Source: a virus
Taxonomy: Duplodnaviria; Heunggongvirae; Uroviricota; Caudoviricetes
Length of the DNA stretch: 29,051 nucleotides
Virus record (IMG/VR): IMGVR_UViG_2547132278_000023
Strand: one strand, 5' to 3'
The notes under the pieces were generated by a model. The model searched no databases and was not told where the DNA came from. It saw nothing but the letters and a program-made list of their open reading frames with translations. A program made the position numbers and the translations under genes. Positions 2,077 to 29,051 of the stretch are shown piece after piece; positions within the stretch are counted from its first letter, which is position 1; each line of letters opens with the position of its first letter.

Positions 2077-4035
2077 TCACCCGACCCGCACAAATAATCC
2101 TATATACGCTTCCTTTCCGTTGGTGGTATAAAGACCATCTCCCCCCAGAGACTGATACACTCCGGGAAATGCCGATGTATTCGTTCTGCCAATGACAAAC
2201 GTTGCCTCCCCTTTCATTGTGCCTGCTCCTGTCACGCCTCCCACTACTATTTCCACCGGCGCAAGTGCTTTTCCCGGGCATGGTTGTCCACGACTCAGGC
2301 GCATTAAAACTCCACCTTCCGCTACTCCCAAAAAAGCTGCCATAACCACACTGCCGATATCCGGTTTCGGCGAACTGATACTTCTTAAAAATTCATCCTT
2401 TGATAATTTGCTCTGAGCCTCATCCATTACCACTTTGACCGCTTTTGGGGTTGCCGCCAGTGACTCGGAAGTGCTGTTTGTCGCACTACTGAGTTGTACT
2501 ATCCCTTTCTGTGCTGTCGTTGCATTCTGTGCGGTGTATTTCCCGTTAGCCAGGTCATACGCGGCCTTAACTGCTTTTGGCGTTGCCGCCAGTGACTCGG
2601 AAGTACTGTTTGTCGCACTGCTGAGTTGTACTATCCCCTTTTTCGTCGTGCTCGCATCCTCAAGCGCCACGGCGTATGCAATATCCTCTGCCCGTTTTGC
2701 TGCTGTCTCGGCGCGCGTTGCTGCGGATTCTGCCGTACTCTTGCTCTGTGCTGCCGCCGTCGCACTACCAGCTGCCTCGGTCGCTTTCGTGGATGCCGTC
2801 GTGGCACTTCCCTTCGCTGCTGACGCCTGTTTAGTCGCCTCATCTTTTGAAGCAGACGCAGATGATGCCGATGACGCCGCCGAACTGGCGGACGATGCGG
2901 CAGCCGTTTTTGAGGATTCTGCGCTGGTTTCCGACGCTTTCGCGTTCGTTTCGGATGTCTTCGCTGCGGAAGCAGACCTCGCTGCTGCGCTGGCCTGTTC
3001 AGCGGCTTCGCCAGCCTTCGTTGTGGCTGTTGAAGCAGACGATGCGGCACTTTCTGCCGATTTTCCGGCGGCGGTGGCACTGGCTGAGGCCTGCCCGGCA
3101 CTTGTTGACGCGGCACTGGCAGACGACGCAGCCGCTGTTTTTGAGCCTGCCGCAGCTGAGGCGCTCTGTCCCGCTGCCGTCTCAGAAGACTTAGCGTTCG
3201 TCTCGGACGTTTTTGCCGCCTTCGCGGAATTTCCTGCCGCCGTTGCCGAGGAAGCGGCACTACTGGCGCTCGAGGATGCGTTCGTTTCTGATGATTTCGC
3301 TGCCTCTTTTGAGGCCGCCGCATCCCGGGCTGAGGTGGCAGCTTCTGAGGCTTTCGTAGTCGCGGTGGATGCAGAAGTGGCTGCTGATTGTTGTGACGCT
3401 GCGGCATTCGTTTCTGACGTTTTCGCCGCACCGGCACTGGTGGCCGCCGCGCTTTTTGAGGACTCTGCAGCGGCAGCACTTTTTGATGCCTCAGAGGCTT
3501 TTGCTGATGCCGTTCCCGCGCTGGAAAAAGCCTCCTGAGCCGACGTCGCGGCCTGTCCGGCTGACGTGCTGGCGGCACGAGCTGAGCCTGCAGCATCAGT
3601 CGCATGGGTTGCCGCCTCACGGGCTGATGTGCTGGCATCGCTGGCTGACTTCTTCGCGGCTGCCGTGTTCTGTGCCACCGCGGACGCGTTACGCGCCACC
3701 TCTTCCACCATCAGTTCAAAACGGCGCAGTGCCTCAGGACGGGCATCATCCTCCGTCATGGCACCGAGAAAATCATTCAGCGTACCGGGTCGGGAATCTT
3801 CATACACGGTGATGGTCCCGGCATGTGACGGCGGGAATCCCTCCACCAACAGAATAACGCTGTACTGCCCGTACTCAACGTCCATGCTGTAACGCCCGGC
3901 TTCATCCGGATTTTCTGAGGCCAGCGTGTTCACCACCACCGTGGTGCTGTTACGTTTTGCTTTCAGCTGGATTGTGCAGTTCTGTACCGGTTTTCCTGTG
4001 CCGTCTTTCAGTACACCTGAAATCTTTACTGCCAT
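2077..4035 (-). CDS. stf: Side tail fiber protein Stf: lambda-like N-terminal and Ala/Ser/Thr-rich shaft, divergent C-terminal tip
   Basis: N-terminus MAVKISGVLKDGTGKPVQNCTIQLKA... and the A/S/T-rich repeats match lambda Stf as recalled. The conserved fiber motif KGIVQLSSATNSTSESLAATPKAVK occurs twice. Track ORF starts 2 codons upstream (MNMAVK), so start is 4035 or 4041. Confidence 0.85.
   Translation of the reverse strand: MAVKISGVLKDGTGKPVQNCTIQLKAKRNSTTVVVNTLASENPDEAGRYSMDVEYGQYSVILLVEGFPPSHAGTITVYEDSRPGTLNDFLGAMTEDDARPEALRRFELMVEEVARNASAVAQNTAAAKKSASDASTSAREAATHATDAAGSARAASTSAGQAATSAQEAFSSAGTASAKASEASKSAAAAESSKSAAATSAGAAKTSETNAAASQQSAATSASTATTKASEAATSARDAAASKEAAKSSETNASSSASSAASSATAAGNSAKAAKTSETNAKSSETAAGQSASAAAGSKTAAASSASAASTSAGQASASATAAGKSAESAASSASTATTKAGEAAEQASAAARSASAAKTSETNAKASETSAESSKTAAASSASSAASSASSASASKDEATKQASAAKGSATTASTKATEAAGSATAAAQSKSTAESAATRAETAAKRAEDIAYAVALEDASTTKKGIVQLSSATNSTSESLAATPKAVKAAYDLANGKYTAQNATTAQKGIVQLSSATNSTSESLAATPKAVKVVMDEAQSKLSKDEFLRSISSPKPDIGSVVMAAFLGVAEGGVLMRLSRGQPCPGKALAPVEIVVGGVTGAGTMKGEATFVIGRTNTSAFPGVYQSLGGDGLYTTNGKEAYIGLFVRVG
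2430..2645. repeat. Two near-identical direct repeats of about 75 bp, separated by about 60 bp, inside stf
   Basis: The repeat encodes the duplicated KGIVQLSSATNSTSESLAATPKAVK motif and shows on the antisense frame as the repeated peptide TAFGVAASDSEVLFVALLSCTIPF. Coordinates approximate. Confidence 0.5.
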
Positions 4036-4099: not shown

Positions 4100-4699
4100 T
4101 CAGAATTTATAACCGACACCCACAATGAAACCGTCAGTGCGCCAGTCACCACTGCCGGAGCCTTCATAAGCAATATCAATGGCCACGGATTCGGTCGGGT
4201 TAAACTGCACGCCAGCCCCCCACGCCAGAGACGTGTTGCTGTGGCGACCGTCATCACTTCCGGTCAGCACATCATGCGTTTTCCCCGTATTGTCGGTCAC
4301 CTGCAGATAATCCCCGGAGAAAGTCGACACACGGCTGTAAGCCACACCCGCCATCGCATACGCGCTGAACCATTCATTCACGCGCACAGACGGTCCCGCC
4401 ATCACGCTGAACCAGCGGTTACGCACGGAATCCTCATGCCAGCGGGTATCGCTGTAATGCGTTTTTTGCTCATCTTCAGCGTTGGCATAACTGAATGACG
4501 TAATCAGCCCCAGCGTGTCCGTAAACTCATAACGGTATTTCACGTTAATCCCGTTCAGATTATCGCTGCCGGGAGCGTTCGTACGGGCATGAAGATACCC
4601 TGCGCTCAGTGTGGCCTGCTGCTCAGACGCCCATGCAGGCGCACCGGATACGGCCAGACAGATGGCTGCGGACAAAATGGCTGCATAAACTTTACGCAT
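4100..4699 (-). CDS. lom: Outer membrane protein Lom (Ail/Lom family beta-barrel)
   Basis: 199 aa with signal peptide MRKVYAAILSAAICLAVSGAPAWA and C-terminus ...AYEGSGSGDWRTDGFIVGVGYKF identical in character to lambda Lom. Sits directly after J as in lambda. Confidence 0.9.
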   Translation of the reverse strand: MRKVYAAILSAAICLAVSGAPAWASEQQATLSAGYLHARTNAPGSDNLNGINVKYRYEFTDTLGLITSFSYANAEDEQKTHYSDTRWHEDSVRNRWFSVMAGPSVRVNEWFSAYAMAGVAYSRVSTFSGDYLQVTDNTGKTHDVLTGSDDGRHSNTSLAWGAGVQFNPTESVAIDIAYEGSGSGDWRTDGFIVGVGYKF

Positions 4700-25649: not shown

Positions 25650-26169
25650 TCAGCAACCCCGGTATCAGTTCATCCAGCGCGGCTGCTTTGTTCATGGCTT
25701 TGATGATATCCCGTTTCAGGAAATCAACATGTCGGTTTTCCAGTTCCGGAAAACGCCGCTGCACCGACAGGGGGATCCCGTCGAGAATACTGGCAATTTC
25801 ACCTGCGATCCGCGACAACACGAAAGTACAGAATGCGGTTTCCACCACTTCAGCGGAGTCTCTGGCATTCTTCAGTTCCTGTGCGTCGGCCTGCGCACGC
25901 GTAAGTCGATGGCGTTCGTACTCAATAGTCCCTGGCTGGAGATCTGCCTCGCTGGCCTGCCGCAGTTCTTCAACCTCCCGGCGCAGCTTTTCGTTCTCAA
26001 TTTCAGCATCCCTTTCGGCATACCATTTTATGACGGCGGCAGAGTCATAAAGCACCTCATTACCCTTGCCACCGCCTCGCAGAACGGGCATTCCCTGTTC
26101 CTGCCAGTTCTGAATGGTACGGATACTCGCACCGAAAATGTCAGCCAGCTGCTTTTTGTTGACTTCCAT
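25624..26169 (-). CDS. Nu1: Terminase small subunit Nu1
   Basis: 181 aa, MEVNKKQLADIFGASIRTIQNWQEQGMPVLRGGGKGNEVLYDSAAVIKWYAERD... (winged-HTH N-terminus), lambda Nu1. 3' end overlaps the A start. Confidence 0.9.
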
Positions 26170-26360
26170 TGTTCATTCCACGGACAAAAACAGAGAAAGG
26201 AAACGACAGAGGCCAAAAAGCTCGCTTTCAGCACCTGTCGTTTCCTTTCTTTTCAGGGGGTATTTTAAATAAAAACATTAAGTTACGACGAAGAAGAACG
26301 GAAACACCTTAAACCGGAAAATTTTCATAAATAGCGAAAACCCGCGAGGTCGCCGCCCCG
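26170..26360 (-). promoter_or_regulatory. cos packaging site: cosB (R1, R2, R3 terminase-binding repeats) and cosN with the 12-nt cohesive-end sequence
   Basis: Reverse complement of 26347-26358 is GGGCGGCGACCT, followed by CGCGGGTTTTCGCTATTTATGAAAATTTTCCGG, the lambda left end as recalled. R-site-like repeats: gaaaggaaacgacag (about 26195-26209), ctgtcgtttcctttc (about 26235-26249), cgaagaagaacggaaacacc (about 26289-26308). Lambda right-end-like sequence (cgtaacctgtcgg) continues from 26359. Confidence 0.8.
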
Positions 26361-26393
26361 TAACCTGTCGGATCGCCGGAAAGGACCCGCAAA

Positions 26394-26410
26394 ATGATAA
26401 TAATTATCAT
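26394..26410. promoter_or_regulatory. 17-bp perfect palindrome ATGATAATAATTATCAT on the right-end side of cosN
   Basis: Self-complementary sequence about 35 bp from cosN. Function unknown; possibly part of the cosQ-side packaging region or an operator. Confidence 0.3.
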
Positions 26411-26557
26411 CTGCATGTCACAACGTGCATCTACGCCATCAAACCACGTCAAATAATCAATTATGACGCAGGTATCGTATTAATTGATCTGCATCAACTT
26501 AACGTAAAAACAACTTCAGACAATACAAATCAGTGACACTGAATACAGGGCAACCTC

Positions 26558-26791
26558 ATGTCAACGAAGAACAGAACCCGCAGAACAACAACCCGCAACA
26601 TCCGCTTTCCTAACCAAATGATTGAACAAATTAACATCGCTCTTGATCAAAAAGGGTCCGGGAATTTCTCAGCCTGGGTCATTGAAGCCTGCCGCCGGAG
26701 ACTGTGCTCAGAAAAAAGAGTTTCTCCTGAAGCAAACAAAGAAAAGAGTGACATTACTGAATTGCTCAGAAAACAGATCAGACCAGATTGA
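26558..26791 (+). CDS. Small hypothetical protein, probably ribbon-helix-helix DNA-binding fold (YlcI/DUF3950-like, tentative)
   Basis: 77-aa ORF with a basic N-terminus (RTRRTTTRNIRF) then a strand-helix-turn-helix pattern (NIRFPNQMIEQINIALDQKGSGNFSAWVIEACRRRL). ATG preceded by aggg. AT-rich codon usage unlike the structural genes. Confidence 0.5.
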   Translation: MSTKNRTRRTTTRNIRFPNQMIEQINIALDQKGSGNFSAWVIEACRRRLCSEKRVSPEANKEKSDITELLRKQIRPD

Positions 26792-26849
26792 AGCAATTTA
26801 GATAATCGTGCAGACTACGCCCCCCTCATATCACATGGAAGGTTTATCT

Positions 26850-27260
26850 ATGGATCAGGTAGTCATTTTTAAACAAATATTTGATAAAGTTCGAAACGAT
26901 TTAAACTATCAATGGTTTTATTCTGAGCTAAAACGTCATAATGTCTCACATTACATTTACTATTTAGCCACAGAGAATGTTCATATTGTATTAAAAAATG
27001 ATAATACAGTGTTATTAAAGGGCCTAAAAAACATTGTGTCTGTCAAATTTTCAAAGGATAGGCATCTTATAGAAACGACCTCTAATAAGCTGAAATCCAG
27101 AGAGATCACATTTCAGGAATACAGAAGAAACCTTGCTAAAGCAGGAGTTTTTCGGTGGGTTACAAATATCCACGAACAAAAAAGATATTACTATGCCTTT
27201 GATAATTCATTACTCTTTACTGAAAACATACAGAGCACATCACAAATGTTTCCACACTAA
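26850..27260 (+). CDS. Hypothetical protein, YbcV/DUF1398-like (tentative; prophage 'putative envelope protein' family)
   Basis: The track ORF is 26808-27260. Start set at the internal ATG ([11 protein letters not shown]...) with GGAAGG about 9 nt upstream, giving 136 aa. AT-rich, 58 bp after the previous ORF, same strand. Confidence 0.5.
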
Positions 27261-27562
27261 ACCATAACGTCCGGTTTCTTCTACCCCTGCACCGGACTGG
27301 CTGACATGAAGAGCAACCCCGCGTTCAGTTGACGCGTTAATAACCCGGTGTGCATCGTTTTTGATTATTCCCGCACACTCACGCAGAAGGAATTCCCCGT
27401 CGGGCTACGGTCATGGTTAATGCGGGAATACGGCGACGATACAGCGCATGATGTGTCAGGCTTGAATACCTTTATCCGTTAAAAGGGATATCAGTTAAGT
27501 TATCCCGTGCAGGGTATAAGCCATTATCAAGCCCCCCGTAGATAGGCTTTGTAATGACATCT

Positions 27563-28087
27563 TCAATTAATCAGCAGTTCAGGCTGTGTCACCTGCAAGA
27601 TGTATTCATGCTCGACAGCCAGGACACGCTTCTCTTTCTTCCGTTCGTTCATTAACCGACTGCCGATCGTACCTTTCAGCTTTGAGCGTGTTTCTTTGAT
27701 GGCGTAGCGGTGCTGCATTTCTTCGCCAATTGCCATGCGGCGGCTCAGTTGTTCTGCCATCCAGTTGAATGCTGCGATATAGCTCTCCTTGATTGCCGCA
27801 GCAGCTTTCCCGGTGAACCCCATCACAACCATGATCCAGCCATCTTTCGTCAGGCTGTACATCGGGCGAACCTTGCCCTGCTCATCGATATAATCAGCCG
27901 ACGCAAAATTGCGTTGGCTAAACTCACGCGAGCAATCAGCCTTAACCTGCTCGATTTTCCTGAGAACATCACCGTGTCGCTTGCCGAAGTACTTGGCAAT
28001 TTTTCTGGATGTGGTAACGACCTCTCCGTTTTTGGCTTGCACCATTTCTCGGAAGTCGAAGGCTGGAATAACTGAATGATTATTCAT
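27563..28087 (-). CDS. rha: Rha-family phage regulatory protein
   Basis: 174 aa from internal Met of the track ORF. N-terminal region MNNHSVIPAFDFREMVQAKNGEVVTTSRKIAKYFGKRHGDVLRKIEQ is the Rha-family signature I recognise. Confidence 0.7.
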   Translation of the reverse strand: MNNHSVIPAFDFREMVQAKNGEVVTTSRKIAKYFGKRHGDVLRKIEQVKADCSREFSQRNFASADYIDEQGKVRPMYSLTKDGWIMVVMGFTGKAAAAIKESYIAAFNWMAEQLSRRMAIGEEMQHRYAIKETRSKLKGTIGSRLMNERKKEKRVLAVEHEYILQVTQPELLIN

Positions 28088-28429
28088 AGCGTCTTTACCT
28101 TTTAGAAAGTGAGCCTGTCTCACAGAAAAGCCGCCCGAGAGAGGTCGCCACCTATAACGGCATTTCTCAGGCTCGCTTACTGAAAGGCTCTCGTTAATAT
28201 GCGCGTGAGATGCGCTGTGAAATTCAGATATAAAAAGCCCCGCGAATGCGAGGCTAAATCCTGGTATTTGTAATGAACTGGCTCTTATCTCAACGCAGCC
28301 CCTTACTGCGCGCCAGATGCTCAATATCAAGCATCAGCAATGAGATGTTTAATCTGGATTTACTCCAGAAGTGATCACCACCCTGTCTACAGAGCCAGAT
28401 GTGAAGGATGATGAGTAAAATTATCGCTA

Positions 28430-28799
28430 TCATCGAAGGCATTGCGTCCTAATGTATTCCTGAAGCGTTCTCAGTGCTGTTTGGTCGCGGATAATTCCGT
28501 CCCGGATATCGAGAACGTTTCGTCCAGCAACTGGAGAGAGTTCGACGGTGGCATCATTGCCCATGCCGGAGGCGCTGGAGGTTTCGGCAGAGGATGGCAC
28601 AGGGCATTTTCCTTTGACGAGCACCCTGCCACCATTATCAAGCTTCCGCAGAAGAGCATCATTTTCAGCTTTCGCATCAGCTAACTCCTTCGTGTATTTT
28701 GCATCGAGCGCAGCAACATCACGCTGACGCATCTGCATGTCAGTAATTGCCGCGTTCGCCAGCTTCAGTTCTCTGACATTTTTGTCGCGCTGGGCTTTG
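28430..28799 (-). pseudogene. Rz: Rz (inner-membrane spanin) gene lacking its 5' end; interrupted by an IS21-family insertion
   Basis: The reading frame encodes ...[49 protein letters not shown]... matching lambda Rz from about residue 33 onward. Upstream of about 28800 the sequence changes to IS sequence with an in-frame stop; no signal-anchor coding region present. Confidence 0.65.
28471..28677 (-). CDS. Rz1: Rz1 (outer-membrane lipoprotein spanin), embedded in Rz in the +1 frame
   Basis: 68-aa [24 protein letters not shown]... with lipobox (MVAGC) followed by a proline-rich segment PKPPAPPAW, like lambda Rz1. Located entirely inside the Rz remnant. Confidence 0.7.

Positions 28800-29051
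<252 letters not shown>

Follow-up and report, generated by a model that had tools for sequence, protein, structure and literature searches.

Organization of the rha locus

The DNA analysed here, called the window, is a 29,051-nt stretch of a Caudoviricetes virus (IMG/VR record IMGVR_UViG_2547132278_000023). The minus strand between 27563 and 28442 forms the end of the late operon of a lambdoid phage, with Rz/Rz1 and a small membrane-protein gene followed by a predicted terminator, a leader and rha:

28430..28804, minus strand: Rz spanin gene, 5'-truncated (Pfam Phage_lysis, E 6e-24)
28471..28677, minus strand: Rz1, embedded in Rz
28290..28442, minus strand: short ORF encoding 50 aa, or 47 aa if the second Met is the start, phrog_11822
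28226..28255, minus strand: predicted intrinsic terminator, AGCCUCGC-AUUC-GCGGGGCU and then UUUUUAUAU
28088..28215, minus strand: whole non-coding leader RNA, about 128 nt, consisting of a GC hairpin and a pseudoknotted stem and ending at the rha ATG
27563..28087, minus strand: rha coding sequence, 174 aa plus stop, ATG at 28087-28085

The 174-aa product of the last gene matched the Pfam family Phage_pRha (PF09669) over profile positions 1-90 of 91 (E 2.2e-28, 99.1 bits, curated cutoff 29.9) and phrog_518 (E 4e-78). It is 73% identical to phi80 Rha over 173 aa and 37% identical to P22 Rha. The assignment to the Rha family, which a preliminary description had made from the letters alone, was thus borne out by the Pfam check, and so was the position that it gave for the gene, between the lysis genes and the cos-proximal genes: Rz/Rz1 lie on one side, DUF1398/DUF3950 genes, cos, Nu1 and A on the other. 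Two Rfam miRNA matches at 26189-26255 correspond to an inverted repeat next to Nu1. In the window, as in phi80 and P22, rha comes directly after Rz in the late operon. Judged by its sequence, the gene is an ordinary phage rha in its usual place, one more copy of a gene that is already known. Mozola and Friedman in 1985 and Henthorn and Friedman in 1995 reportedly described the rha loci of phi80 and P22. The phi80 protein has been defined experimentally as the "DNA synthesis inhibition in IHF- hosts" protein (phi80 record; PMC4936722).

Read mechanically, the rha frame stays open upstream as far as a TTG at 28330, which makes an ORF of 255 aa, and the GenBank record of PhiR70_1 annotates a 253-aa CDS matching this upstream extension. 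We rejected the N-terminally extended protein: the terminator falls inside the extension, unrelated genes follow the same leader and are joined to it at the ATG, and the Rha domain begins at residue 25 counted from the 28087 ATG, an offset equal to that in P22 if the equivalent ATG is taken there. The annotated rha starts in P22, phi80, HK639 and phiv205-1 fall inside the RNA element described below, likewise the start of the PhiR70_1 CDS, and should be corrected.

Similarity of the truncated Rz gene to intact Rz ends near 28800, and an IS21-family IstB lies beyond it. The 50-aa ORF overlaps the Rz stop codon, has a hydrophobic N-terminal helix and matches phrog_11822 end to end (residues 1-50 of 50, E 2e-37). 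It is the same as gene 65 of Sf6 and is annotated also in Ayreon, PhiR70_1 and phiv205-1. The frame is intact in 14 nucleotide versions, among them a Kluyvera copy with 62 nt differences; close variants carry mostly non-synonymous changes, so these do not prove selection at the protein level. The sequence identifies the ORF as a gene for a membrane-type protein.

The predicted terminator stem (28255..28236) has 8 bp, six of them GC pairs, with a 4-nt loop and the T run UUUUUAUAU behind it. The Ayreon, HK639 and phi80 records annotate this hairpin as a terminator, and across copies the loop varies whereas the stem is kept. A strict terminator-like hairpin stands upstream of 72 of 87 members of the leader family, about 15% of the copies being without a clear terminator. 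By its sequence, 28226..28255 is an intrinsic (Rho-independent) terminator. A sigma-70 promoter scan of the coding (minus) strand between 28088 and 28430 found none, and neither did a search of the leader-family alignments for conserved promoter hexamers; the best candidate found by eye (TTCACA and TATTAA with a 16-nt spacer) is not conserved, and HK639-type copies have lost it by deletion. Of the two signals whose prediction the preliminary description had proposed, the analysis thus brought to light a terminator, which it had missed, and no promoter. With a terminator directly upstream and no promoter after it, transcription of the leader and rha would depend almost entirely on Q-modified, terminator-resistant RNA polymerase in late lytic growth.

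At the equivalent place, in the slot between Rz and cos, lambda carries bor on the opposite strand, as the earlier account correctly stated. The bor gene has its own expression signals; the rha gene of the window, unlike bor, points the same way as the late operon, and it has a terminator upstream and no promoter that we could find. If the word is used strictly, for a gene with its own promoter and its own terminator, rha is therefore not a moron, a concept reportedly introduced by Juhala et al. in 2000.

A conserved structured RNA precedes rha

The leader was matched by a covariance model at 28094-28200 with 104.6 bits (E 2e-20), and its minimum-free-energy fold has -61.7 kcal/mol (z -2.9). 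Its parts are, from 5' to 3':

28201..28215, minus strand: GC hairpin, GCGC-AUCUCAC-GCGC, 99.7% paired
28188..28193, minus strand: 5' strand of the pseudoknot, CGAGAG
28180..28187, minus strand: anti-Shine-Dalgarno (anti-SD) block, 5' strand of P0, CCUUUCAG, with a near-invariant CUUUCAG core
28168..28174, minus strand: 5' strand of P1, GAGCCUG
28158..28167, minus strand: 5' strand of P2, AGAAAUGCCG, covariation
28142..28153, minus strand: mini-hairpin P3 at the apex, optional, AGGUGGCGACCU, part of the minimum-free-energy fold
28136..28141, minus strand: 3' strand of the pseudoknot in the apical loop, CUCUCG, complementary to CGAGAG
28124..28133, minus strand: 3' strand of P2, CGGCUUUUCU, covariation
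28118..28123, minus strand: 3'-side bulge, GUGAGA, conserved (GUGCGA in most homologues)
28111..28117, minus strand: 3' strand of P1, CAGGCUC, complementary to GAGCCUG
28098..28105, minus strand: 3' strand of P0, CUAAAAGG, including the Shine-Dalgarno (SD) AAGG and pairing with CCUUUCAG

The module would be made up of the GC hairpin, a long stem (P0-P1-P2) and a pseudoknot. The stem is quasi-continuous over about 28 bp and has an asymmetric internal bulge; the P3 mini-hairpin is deleted in short variants, which have a 51-nt core. A GC hairpin lies within 45 nt upstream of the element in 85 of 87 contexts, with variants such as GCGCC/GGCGC, GCGU/ACGC and CGCUU/AAGCG. The 5' strand of the pseudoknot adjoins P0 with no linker between them, and the pseudoknot joins the apical loop to the six nucleotides just 5' of the anti-SD block.

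The leader at 28088..28215 is non-coding. We rejected a protein-coding function of either the leader or its antisense strand: homologues differ by 1-2-nt indels, 66 of 88 leaders contain in-frame stops, and leader lengths (89-117 nt) are not multiples of three. An ATG follows close behind the element in 88 of 92 copies, the distance between AGG and ATG being 4-11 nt in nearly all of them.

The 340 bp in front of rha had been described as an ORF-free leader with a short inverted repeat, and rha as a moron. An independent ORF of 60 aa or more is indeed absent, the rha frame itself being mechanically open as noted above, and the inverted repeat gtgag-cctgt-ctcac is present at 28109-28123. However, about 140 bp are taken up by the conserved 50-aa ORF, and the remaining 200 bp or so by the terminator and the pseudoknotted leader RNA; the search for small ORFs or sRNAs recommended in that description thus yielded a small ORF and a structured leader RNA at 28088-28215, and a conserved small protein accounts for part of the region. 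The repeat itself is not in excess over chance (five perfect 5-bp stems with 3-8-nt loops in the region vs. 2.0 +/- 1.7 in shuffles). It is perfect in only 11 of 90 distinct homologues, and its changes are uncompensated; made from the bulge (28118-28123) plus 28109-28117, it is an unconserved by-product of stem P1. With neither a conserved hairpin nor a promoter, an unstructured leader before a self-contained moron is scarcely credible as an explanation of the region. The preliminary observation was confirmed in part, and its interpretation is partly supported.

When the Rfam 15 covariance models, including C4, IsrK, STnc100, AsxR, AgvB, riboswitches and self-cleaving ribozymes, were compared with positions 26000-29051 of the window, no match to the element was found at E <=1, and the element in eight divergent loci had no Rfam match at E <=0.5. 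Among the sRNAs known from EHEC and from prophages, AsxR and AgvB lie close to stx2, while the Pas sRNAs and STnc100 are found by Q or the holin gene; we rejected all of them as identities of the leader element. A hammerhead-like CUGANGA core noticed by eye is not conserved. The structured leader is absent from the retrievable descriptions of the phi80 and P22 rha loci, and a text search of the literature for an earlier account of the motif found a single one, the P22 RNA discussed below. The leader RNA is without an entry in Rfam or in genome annotation. While the rha gene is routine, the leader is out of the ordinary: it is a sequence-conserved, pseudoknotted RNA of about 105-130 nt, which precedes rha in phi80 and P22, the two phages from which this gene was defined.

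Compensatory changes uphold the GC hairpin, P1, P2 and the pseudoknot

Structure statistics were calculated for 90 distinct copies; 92 homologues were aligned. The patterns used for retrieval had P1 or else CTTTCAG...CTAAAAGG as their anchor, one alignment was fitted to the covariance model, and with this bias toward the proposed structure 91.4% of the cells were paired vs. 82.0% in shuffles, 20 of 22 pairs were changed on both sides, and the covariation score was 0.330 vs. 0.164, a value reached by none of 500 shuffles and compared with at most 0.103 in slid controls. All ten pairs of P2 vary on both sides; one of them is AU in 31, GC in 31 and CG in 20 copies. When retrieval left P1 free, compensated P1 variants were recovered (GAGCCA/UGGCUC, GAGCCUUG/CAAGGCUC and CAGCUUCG/CGAGGCUU).

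The register of the pseudoknot differs between subfamilies, therefore we gave up column-wise counting and tested it per sequence and by permutation. At least 15 distinct compensated pairs occur across the leader family. The mean complementary run was 6.24 nt for cognate strands, 4.63 nt for non-cognate ones and 4.50 nt with shuffled flanks; in a permutation test with 20 classes the mean run was 6.0 vs. 4.79 +/- 0.22, which none of 5000 permutations reached. Compensatory changes in the 90 distinct copies thus uphold the GC hairpin, P1, P2 and the pseudoknot.

For P0, the helix on which the proposed mechanism depends, the evidence is of a different kind. The SD region and the anti-SD block are complementary, and their pairing (CCUUUCAG with CUAAAAGG) is predicted in both the minimum-free-energy fold and the RNAalifold consensus. 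CAG and UUU of the anti-SD block are at least 95% conserved among the 90 distinct copies, and both strands of P0 are nearly invariant, with two compensated variants: that of the Stx2a phages, CCUUUCAG/CUGAAAGG, which forms a perfect 8-bp helix with C-G replacing C.A, and L123:11119, which is fully compensated (CACAUAG/CUAUGUG). A register shift by one base accounts for some of the covariation that P0 seems to show. As P0 joins two conserved motifs, its support consists of the complementarity and the two compensated outliers.

The element could also be conserved as DNA, either as a recombination "boundary sequence" or as a protein site such as an IHF site or an operator. Mosaic junctions do lie at the edges of the element, and rha is said to be regulated by IHF (PMC4936722). 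But neither DNA homology nor protein sites predict compensatory changes that keep four helices, including a pseudoknot; the IHF consensus WATCARNNNNTTR, with at most one mismatch, was not found in 28088-28290, and the RNA has been detected in P22 (PMC13397905). We consider conservation at the DNA level alone very improbable.

The leader is a module shared by many phages

The phi80 leader is 100% identical to that of the window over 107 nt, and the order of the features (Rz, annotated terminator, leader, rha) is the same. The P22 rha gene is also preceded by the element, this copy scoring 29.8 bits with the covariance model. The phi80 and P22 loci thus have the same gene family, the position after Rz and the upstream terminator, and differ from the window in nothing essential. 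Other carriers are HK639, phiv205-1, HK620 (before a KilA-N gene), SPN3UB, Klebsiella phages and Stx2a phages; in the last group the element stands before two genes, one of which is an antirepressor-like gene between R and Rz. Of 5426 complete E. coli genomes, 723 (at least 13%) contain the element, as do prophages of 76 species, most of them Enterobacterales.

The genes behind the element vary. HK620 is 95.8% identical to window positions 28083-28800, yet a KilA-N gene follows; the mosaic junction is at the ATG, and the leader is better conserved than its cargo. A census of the cargo genes counted Rha 10 times, KilA-N 10 times and ORF11CD3 8 times, in addition to P22_AR_N, ANT, AntA, TerB and HNH. 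Some cargos are not obviously toxic, among them a glycosyltransferase-like protein of 486 aa and proteins that match Phage_Tail_Tip.

Copies of the element occur in tandem cassettes. This, its place in a terminator-rich late operon and its two stem-loops, with the GC hairpin taken as one of them, could suggest a put-like processive antitermination signal or another polymerase-modifying RNA, serving downstream structural genes. The put RNA of HK022 has two stem-loops of about 70 nt with a triplex and no pseudoknot and is located just after the early promoters (PMC9378689); since the leader has a different architecture and position, we rejected its membership in the put family. Moreover, the element lies downstream, not upstream, of the associated terminator, the SD of the cargo gene in its 3' strand points to translation, and these phages already use Q. 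A role in antitermination is highly unlikely.

The core RNA accumulates in P22-infected cells

The one earlier trace of the motif is P22F, an 89-nt P22 RNA described in June 2026 as having "no known function", which reached 2054 RPM during infection and was confirmed by RT-PCR (PMC13397905). It is among the ten loci that hold 99.8% of the P22 small-RNA reads; for comparison, the levels of oop and sar were 1513 and 2724 RPM, respectively (PMC13397905). P22F maps to P22 positions 39550-39638, which are the hairpin and the SD tail of the P22 copy of the element. Its 5' end is just after the anti-SD block and its 3' end 6 nt before the ATG; it is the P22 homologue of window positions 28092-28179, approximately, comprising stems P0.5, P1 and P2 and the SD tail. 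The window copy differs from it in sequence. P22F was reported as a read cluster only, with no mention of structure, pseudoknot, anti-SD pairing, family or other phages (PMC13397905). Through P22F it is experimentally proven that the core RNA accumulates during P22 infection.

These data raise the question whether the element is mainly the gene or precursor of a stable, trans-acting small RNA, whose position before rha would be secondary and which would target host or phage, or its own mRNA in trans as IsrK does. The abundance of P22F, comparable to that of oop and sar, and its validation by RT-PCR (PMC13397905) speak for this, as do the ends of P22F, which bracket the hairpin exactly, the near-invariance of P1 and the bulge, such as a seed or a protein-binding site would show, and the precedent of IsrK (PMC4825925). 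On the other hand, the 89-nt species has no flanking promoter or terminator, the ATG is close behind the element in nearly all copies, the SD belongs to the conserved unit, and structured leaders often persist as decay intermediates. We regard a primarily trans-acting RNA as rather unlikely.

The same ends, which suit processing or a free-standing sRNA no worse than a simple lock, are also relevant to the idea that the leader is an RNA processing or stability element, i.e. an RNase III or RNase E site excising the accessory message from the late transcript, where cleavage would free or destroy the ribosome-binding site (cf. the R sites of T7 and the RNase III site of the lambda N leader). The length and continuity of the stem with its asymmetric bulge would fit such a site, P22F has discrete ends at the stem base, and the upstream GC hairpin could shield the new 5' end. 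However, a processing site requires neither a pseudoknot nor SD/anti-SD pairing, and RNase III sites tolerate far more variation than P1, the bulge and CUUUCAG, all near-invariant, display. Processing as the main function appears unlikely.

Discussion

It is instructive to compare the leader with other RNAs that control accessory or toxic genes. The c4 antisense RNA of P1 and P7 is processed from the leader of the antirepressor operon (icd-ant) and controls translation downstream. Like c4, the element is a structured leader RNA of an antirepressor-type operon; the loops of c4 pair with repeated target sites, and no c4-type repeated a/b sites were seen at the window leader. The mom gene of phage Mu is a harmful accessory gene of the late region, whose start site is in a stem-loop opened by the Com protein. 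The Mu lock is a simple hairpin, whereas the leader of the window has a pseudoknot.

The +42 mRNA of tisB, a toxic gene, reportedly has a buried ribosome-binding site, a pseudoknot about 100 nt upstream and a processed active form; unlike rha, tisB is a chromosomal type I toxin gene of unrelated sequence, and its pseudoknot promotes ribosome standby (PMC7708055). In the Salmonella prophage Gifsy-1 the antirepressor (anrP) mRNA is transcribed but kept translationally silent by intramolecular structure (PMC4825925). The IsrK/orf45-anrP system shares with the window the lambdoid prophage setting, an antirepressor-like gene, a leader region that contains a terminator, and a stable small RNA derived from this leader. 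Unlike the window leader, however, IsrK has its own promoter and a terminator between sRNA and ORF; it activates in trans via a leader ORF, and the locus is near antQ, not behind the lysis genes. The Rfam families IsrK and C4 did not match the element.

On balance we lean toward the view, with somewhat more confidence than doubt, that in the late operon this leader serves as a portable translational lock on accessory genes of the antirepressor-like kind. As a cis-acting RNA module it would pair the invariant CCUUUCAG with the SD region of rha in the long stem; the predicted fold probably conceals the rha ribosome-binding site, and translation of rha would then be low or conditional. The sequences establish the gene identities, the terminator-like hairpin, the conservation and non-coding character of the leader, helices P1 and P2, the pseudoknot and the SD/anti-SD complementarity; from these we infer translational repression, dependence on Q read-through and relief of the lock. 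Mis-expressed Rha would harm the phage, which may be the classical IHF-minus phenotype. The same module is reused before other antirepressor-like or potentially toxic genes (KilA-N, P22_AR_N/ANT, TerB, HNH), and its folded core persists as an abundant RNA of about 90 nt, which in P22 is P22F.

Unpaired bases are strongly conserved, which suggests a function more specific than passive attenuation. It is possible, though doubtful, that the leader is an undescribed riboswitch-type RNA, with an aptamer-like fold that toggles the SD between hidden and exposed on a specific signal. The signal may be a small molecule, a protein of the host or the phage, e.g. IHF, or the kinetic state of the Q-modified polymerase. 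If true, this RNA would time the antirepressor, KilA-N and Rha-type genes of temperate Enterobacterales phages, including the Stx2a phages, P22 and phi80, and would be a missing link in the 40-year-old IHF-dependent Rha phenotype.

If the leader gates translation, whether as a lock or as a switch, it would offer a concrete way to study by mutation how proteins of the Rha, KilA-N and Ant types stay harmless in the most strongly transcribed operon of the phage. It would also be an entry point to the toxicity of rha in the absence of IHF, and it would explain the abundant P22F RNA.

The rha gene and its neighbours

The features discussed here, with their coordinates in the window, are:

28869-29051, minus strand: C-terminus of IstB (Pfam PF01695, E 8e-24)
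28804..28430, minus strand: truncated Rz (Pfam Phage_lysis, E 5.7e-24)
28677..28471, minus strand: Rz1, embedded in Rz
28442..28290, minus strand: 50-aa ORF overlapping the Rz stop by 13 nt (end-to-end match to phrog_11822, E 2e-37)
28255..28226, minus strand: GC-rich hairpin followed by UUUUUAUAU, scoring as an intrinsic terminator
28215..28088, minus strand: structured RNA of about 128 nt (the leader), ending at the rha ATG
28087 (ATG)..27563, minus strand: rha, 174-aa ORF with AAAAGG before the ATG (Pfam Phage_pRha, E 2.2e-28)
26808..27260, plus strand: DUF1398 gene (Pfam, E 2.8e-46)
26558..26791, plus strand: DUF3950 gene (Pfam, E 4.9e-21)

The preliminary description had recognized a Rha-family gene, and the Pfam match, together with 73% identity over the whole length to the Rha of phi80 and 37% identity to that of P22, bears this out. 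The phi80 record calls its Rha "DNA synthesis inhibition in IHF- hosts". In both phi80 and P22 rha directly follows Rz, with an annotated terminator between the two in phi80, and work of the 1980s-90s had already established the gene and its location (references cited in PMC4936722). Judged by its sequence, the rha of the window is one more ordinary copy of a gene already known. The comparison made earlier with the position of lambda bor was also correct: in lambda, bor lies directly after Rz on the opposite strand, and relatives of the DUF1398 and DUF3950 genes come next. In the window the latter two are followed by the genes of Nu1 and the large terminase subunit, on the minus strand.

Some further observations concern the flanks. 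An IS21-family element (window 28800-29051) cuts the 5' end of Rz near 28805, thus the prophage is without a full-length Rz spanin gene; this Rz/IS21 junction was found in no complete E. coli RefSeq genome. On the plus strand a 44-aa ORF (MCIVFDYSRTLTQKEF...; 27348-27482) runs towards the 3' end of rha. It matched nothing in Pfam or PHROG; PhiR70_1 has it as an annotated ORF, and a 69-aa form occurs in a Stx2a phage (3100-3309 of locus L005). Just upstream of Nu1 there is a long, near-perfect inverted repeat (26189-26255), which gives spurious microRNA matches in Rfam. Its arms resemble the cosB R-site sequence CGTTTCCTTTCT, to which the small terminase binds.

A small ORF and a terminator precede the leader

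The region upstream of rha had been described as a 340-bp ORF-free leader, which is wrong in substance, as it contains a small ORF, a terminator and a structured RNA. The 50-aa ORF is gene 65 of Sf6, annotated also in Ayreon, PhiR70_1 and phiv205-1. It has a hydrophobic helix at its N-terminus, its frame is unbroken in 14 nucleotide versions, and in a Kluyvera version with 62 nucleotide differences the ORF that begins at the second Met is still open over 47 aa. Because the majority of the changes among close variants are non-synonymous, we conclude that the ORF probably, not certainly, encodes a real small membrane protein. The ORF of the window, a member of the Sf6 gene 65 family, lies directly after Rz/Rz1 and overlaps the Rz stop; judging by this placement, it may have an accessory function in lysis or at the membrane.

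The terminator hairpin is annotated as such in the records of Ayreon, HK639 and phi80. Across phages its stem is kept and its loop is variable; the Stx2a phages have a different terminator-like hairpin in its place. Of 87 leader copies, 72 have a strictly defined terminator-like hairpin in front of them, at a median distance of 28 nt from the end of the stem to the start of the covariance model (see below), and several more have an imperfect one. Between the terminator and the rha ATG there are about 138 nt without a credible ORF.

The leader is a portable non-coding module

BLAST searches with the 358-nt region found the small ORF alone (Sf6) or with the terminator (mEp460). HK639, 2B8 and Salmonella, Klebsiella and Stx2a-converting phages (73 of 185 matching records) lack the small ORF but have the terminator and the next 150 nt or so, as far as the ATG. 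HK620 is 95.8% identical to window 28083-28800, yet its next gene encodes a KilA-N protein. The gene 3' of the leader (the cargo) is KilA-N also in SPN3UB, a phi80-like ORF in mEp237 and a divergent Rha, unaligned by BLASTN, in Stx2a phages. Conservation is thus higher in the non-coding piece than in its cargo, with the mosaic junction between the two at the start codon.

Leader variants are separated by 1- and 2-nt indels, their lengths (89-117 nt) are not multiples of three, and an in-frame stop interrupts 66 of 88 distinct leaders before the ATG is reached, all of which shows that the leader is not coding. For these reasons we rejected a 255-aa extended rha ORF as well as the upstream GTG starts annotated in HK639, phiv205-1, phi80 and P22. 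Annotated rha starts (upstream GTG/TTG) fall inside the leader at 39575 in P22 (L218, NC_002371), 1240 in phi80 (L295), 2120 in HK639 (L006), 2850 in phiv205-1 (L004) and 3487 in PhiR70_1 (L001), L-numbers denoting individual phage or prophage loci. The ATG after the Shine-Dalgarno sequence (SD) is at 39644 in P22 and 1276 in the phi80 locus; when this ATG is used, the Rha domain starts at residue 25 in the window and in P22, the two cases covered by this check. The P22 ATG is also the start used in PMC13397905.

Predicted fold of the leader

Two word-anchored IMG/VR scans, one with fixed helix P1, the other with fixed CTTTCAG...CTAAAAGG, and a covariance model built from 24 diverse copies yielded 92 aligned copies, 90 of them distinct. 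On the RNA strand these consist of a GC hairpin (upstream of 85 of 87 copies), a 7-12-nt linker, the pseudoknot 5' strand, CCUUUCAG, the 5' strands of P1 and P2, an apical loop with an optional mini-hairpin (P3) and the pseudoknot 3' strand, the P2 3' strand, a 6-nt bulge (GUGMGA), the P1 3' strand, CUAAAAGG (SD) and the ATG. The inverted repeat noticed earlier is the bulge GUGAG plus the P1 3' strand, and is perfect in only 11 of 90 copies.

In the nested helices 91.4% of the alignment cells are paired (82.0% in the shuffled control), and 20 of 22 pairs have changes on both sides (shuffled mean 9.9), counts that are flattered by the model-fitted alignment on which they were taken. The covariation score was 0.330, against 0.164 for shuffled alignments, none of 500 of which reached it, and all slid controls gave at most 0.103; the sequences compared were retrieved through anchored word patterns and these tests are not phylogeny-aware. 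Covariation in P2 was already visible in a MAFFT-only alignment (e.g. AU 36/GC 32; AU 35/CG 22/GC 11). The invariance of P1 in the first set is by construction, as the pattern fixed it; the second set contains the compensated forms GAGCCA/UGGCUC, GAGCCUUG/CAAGGCUC and CAGCUUCG/CGAGGCUU.

The 6-8 nt directly 5' of CCUUUCAG are complementary to a pyrimidine tract in the apical loop. This pseudoknot complementarity is kept by at least 15 different sequence pairs, among them CGAGAG/CUCUCG (window), CCCCGAG/CUCGGGG, CACAGAA/UUCUGUG, CCACAGAG/CUCUGUGG, CCAAGAA/UUCUUGG, CUCAGAA/UUCUGAG, CCAAAGA/UCUUUGG and CGAUA/UAUCG. Cognate runs average 6.24 nt, compared with 4.63 nt for non-cognate pairs and 4.50 nt for shuffled flanks; in 5000 loop permutations among 20 flank classes the observed mean was never reached.

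Helix P0, the pairing of two near-invariant motifs (SD and anti-SD), was predicted by RNAfold for the window (-61.7 kcal/mol, 181 nt, z -2.9) and by RNAalifold. Its pairing has no mismatch in the Stx2a variant, and one outlier (CACAUAG/CUAUGUG) compensates every change; covariation support is otherwise weak. The pseudoknot 5' strand would continue straight into the P0 5' strand, and its 3' strand would be followed after 0-3 nt by the P2 3' strand; from this we infer either that the four helices close into a compact, ring-like whole or that the pseudoknot and P0 exclude each other.

Distribution and cargo

The window variant, at 80% or more of a 175-nt query, occurs in 723 of 5426 complete E. 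coli genomes, with no annotated feature beneath it among the matches listed. The P1-invariant subfamily was found in 76 species-representative genomes, almost all Enterobacterales (Enterobacteriaceae, Erwiniaceae, Yersiniaceae, Pectobacteriaceae); a few odd metagenome-assembled genomes may be contamination or chance. The corresponding region of lambda contains no copy. Tandem cassettes are common (L015, L064, L178, L196), L123 has a second or tandem leader, and phi80 has two copies, the second at 2757-2848. In L178 nothing but a remnant ORF of 11 codons separates the first leader from a second complete cassette, suggesting that cassettes decay and are turned over. Stx2a phages carry two leaders (in LC645411, L005, at 1178-1285 and 2544-2652): an antirepressor-like gene (P22_AR_N/ORF11CD3) situated between R and Rz has one in front of it, and the divergent Rha after Rz has the second. 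DNA-binding antirepressor-like domains dominate the cargo set.

Table. Pfam domains in 56 diverse cargo proteins (number of members)
Phage_pRha: 10
KilA-N: 10
Phage_Tail_Tip: 9
ORF11CD3: 8
HNH_3: 2
TerB: 2
P22_AR_N, ANT, AntA, T5orf172/MUG113, P63C, AP2, Glycos_transf_2: 1 each

In L149 two copies of the STnc100 sRNA (677-872 and 3723-3925, minus strand; scores of 68 and 57 bits, both exceeding the gathering score) share a strand and flank a TerB gene (4135-4557) with a leader at 4563-4666, therefore several RNA elements cluster in late-operon accessory regions.

The leader RNA and its possible function

No Rfam 15 family matched the leader, either in the window or in divergent copies. Identity with a known EHEC/EPEC prophage sRNA was rejected, AsxR, AgvB, Pas and STnc100 being situated elsewhere, and the put RNA of HK022 differs in architecture and position. 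A June 2026 small-RNA survey of P22 infection lists P22F, an 89-nt RNA with its 3' end 6 nt from the rha start codon, validated by RT-PCR and labelled "No known function" (PMC13397905). Infected cells contained it at 2054 RPM and vesicles at 926 RPM, uninfected samples at 0. The printed sequence of P22F maps to P22 39550-39638 and coincides exactly with the P0.5/P1/P2 hairpin and SD tail of the leader copy in P22, thus the leader RNA has already been seen experimentally. The covariance model found this copy with 29.8 bits (E 1.6e-4); terminator and GC hairpin are present here too, and the sequence directly shows CCACCGA (39529-35) and UCGGUGG (39588-94), which pair perfectly over 7 bp as the pseudoknot. 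In the literature searched we found no description of the fold, family, ribosome binding site link or spread of this RNA.

The leader consistently has the orientation of a start codon that comes immediately after it, and a predicted helix takes up the SD of that gene. What precedes the leader is usually a terminator, not a promoter, and its core builds up in infected cells. Silence of the cassette in a lysogen would follow from the terminator and the lack of a promoter, and in late lytic growth Q-modified polymerase would read through the terminator. The fold would limit or condition ribosome access to the cargo mRNA, and regulators that do damage when overproduced (Rha in IHF-minus hosts, KilA, antirepressors) could have a low or timed output from a very strongly transcribed operon. 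On balance we lean slightly towards the leader being such a translational lock acting in cis. In function it may be compared with P1 c4/ant, Mu mom/Com and the tisB standby pseudoknot. Closest among the cases already worked out is IsrK/anrP of Gifsy-1, in which an antirepressor-like mRNA is transcribed and stays translationally silent until its structure is opened (PMC4825925).

Some features point to more than a passive lock: unpaired positions invariant in sequence (the CAG of CUUUCAG and the bulge), the pseudoknot, and the defined ends of P22F. Because of these, an RNA that acts in trans after processing, an element for processing or stability, and a switch that responds to a ligand or protein are live alternatives. 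The 5' end of P22F lies just after the anti-SD block, where cleavage would remove the lock, and its 3' end lies between the SD and the AUG, where cleavage would kill the message. The region upstream of rha holds a widespread structured RNA family, unannotated and apparently uncharacterised, which may serve as a structured translational leader for phage antirepressor-type genes.
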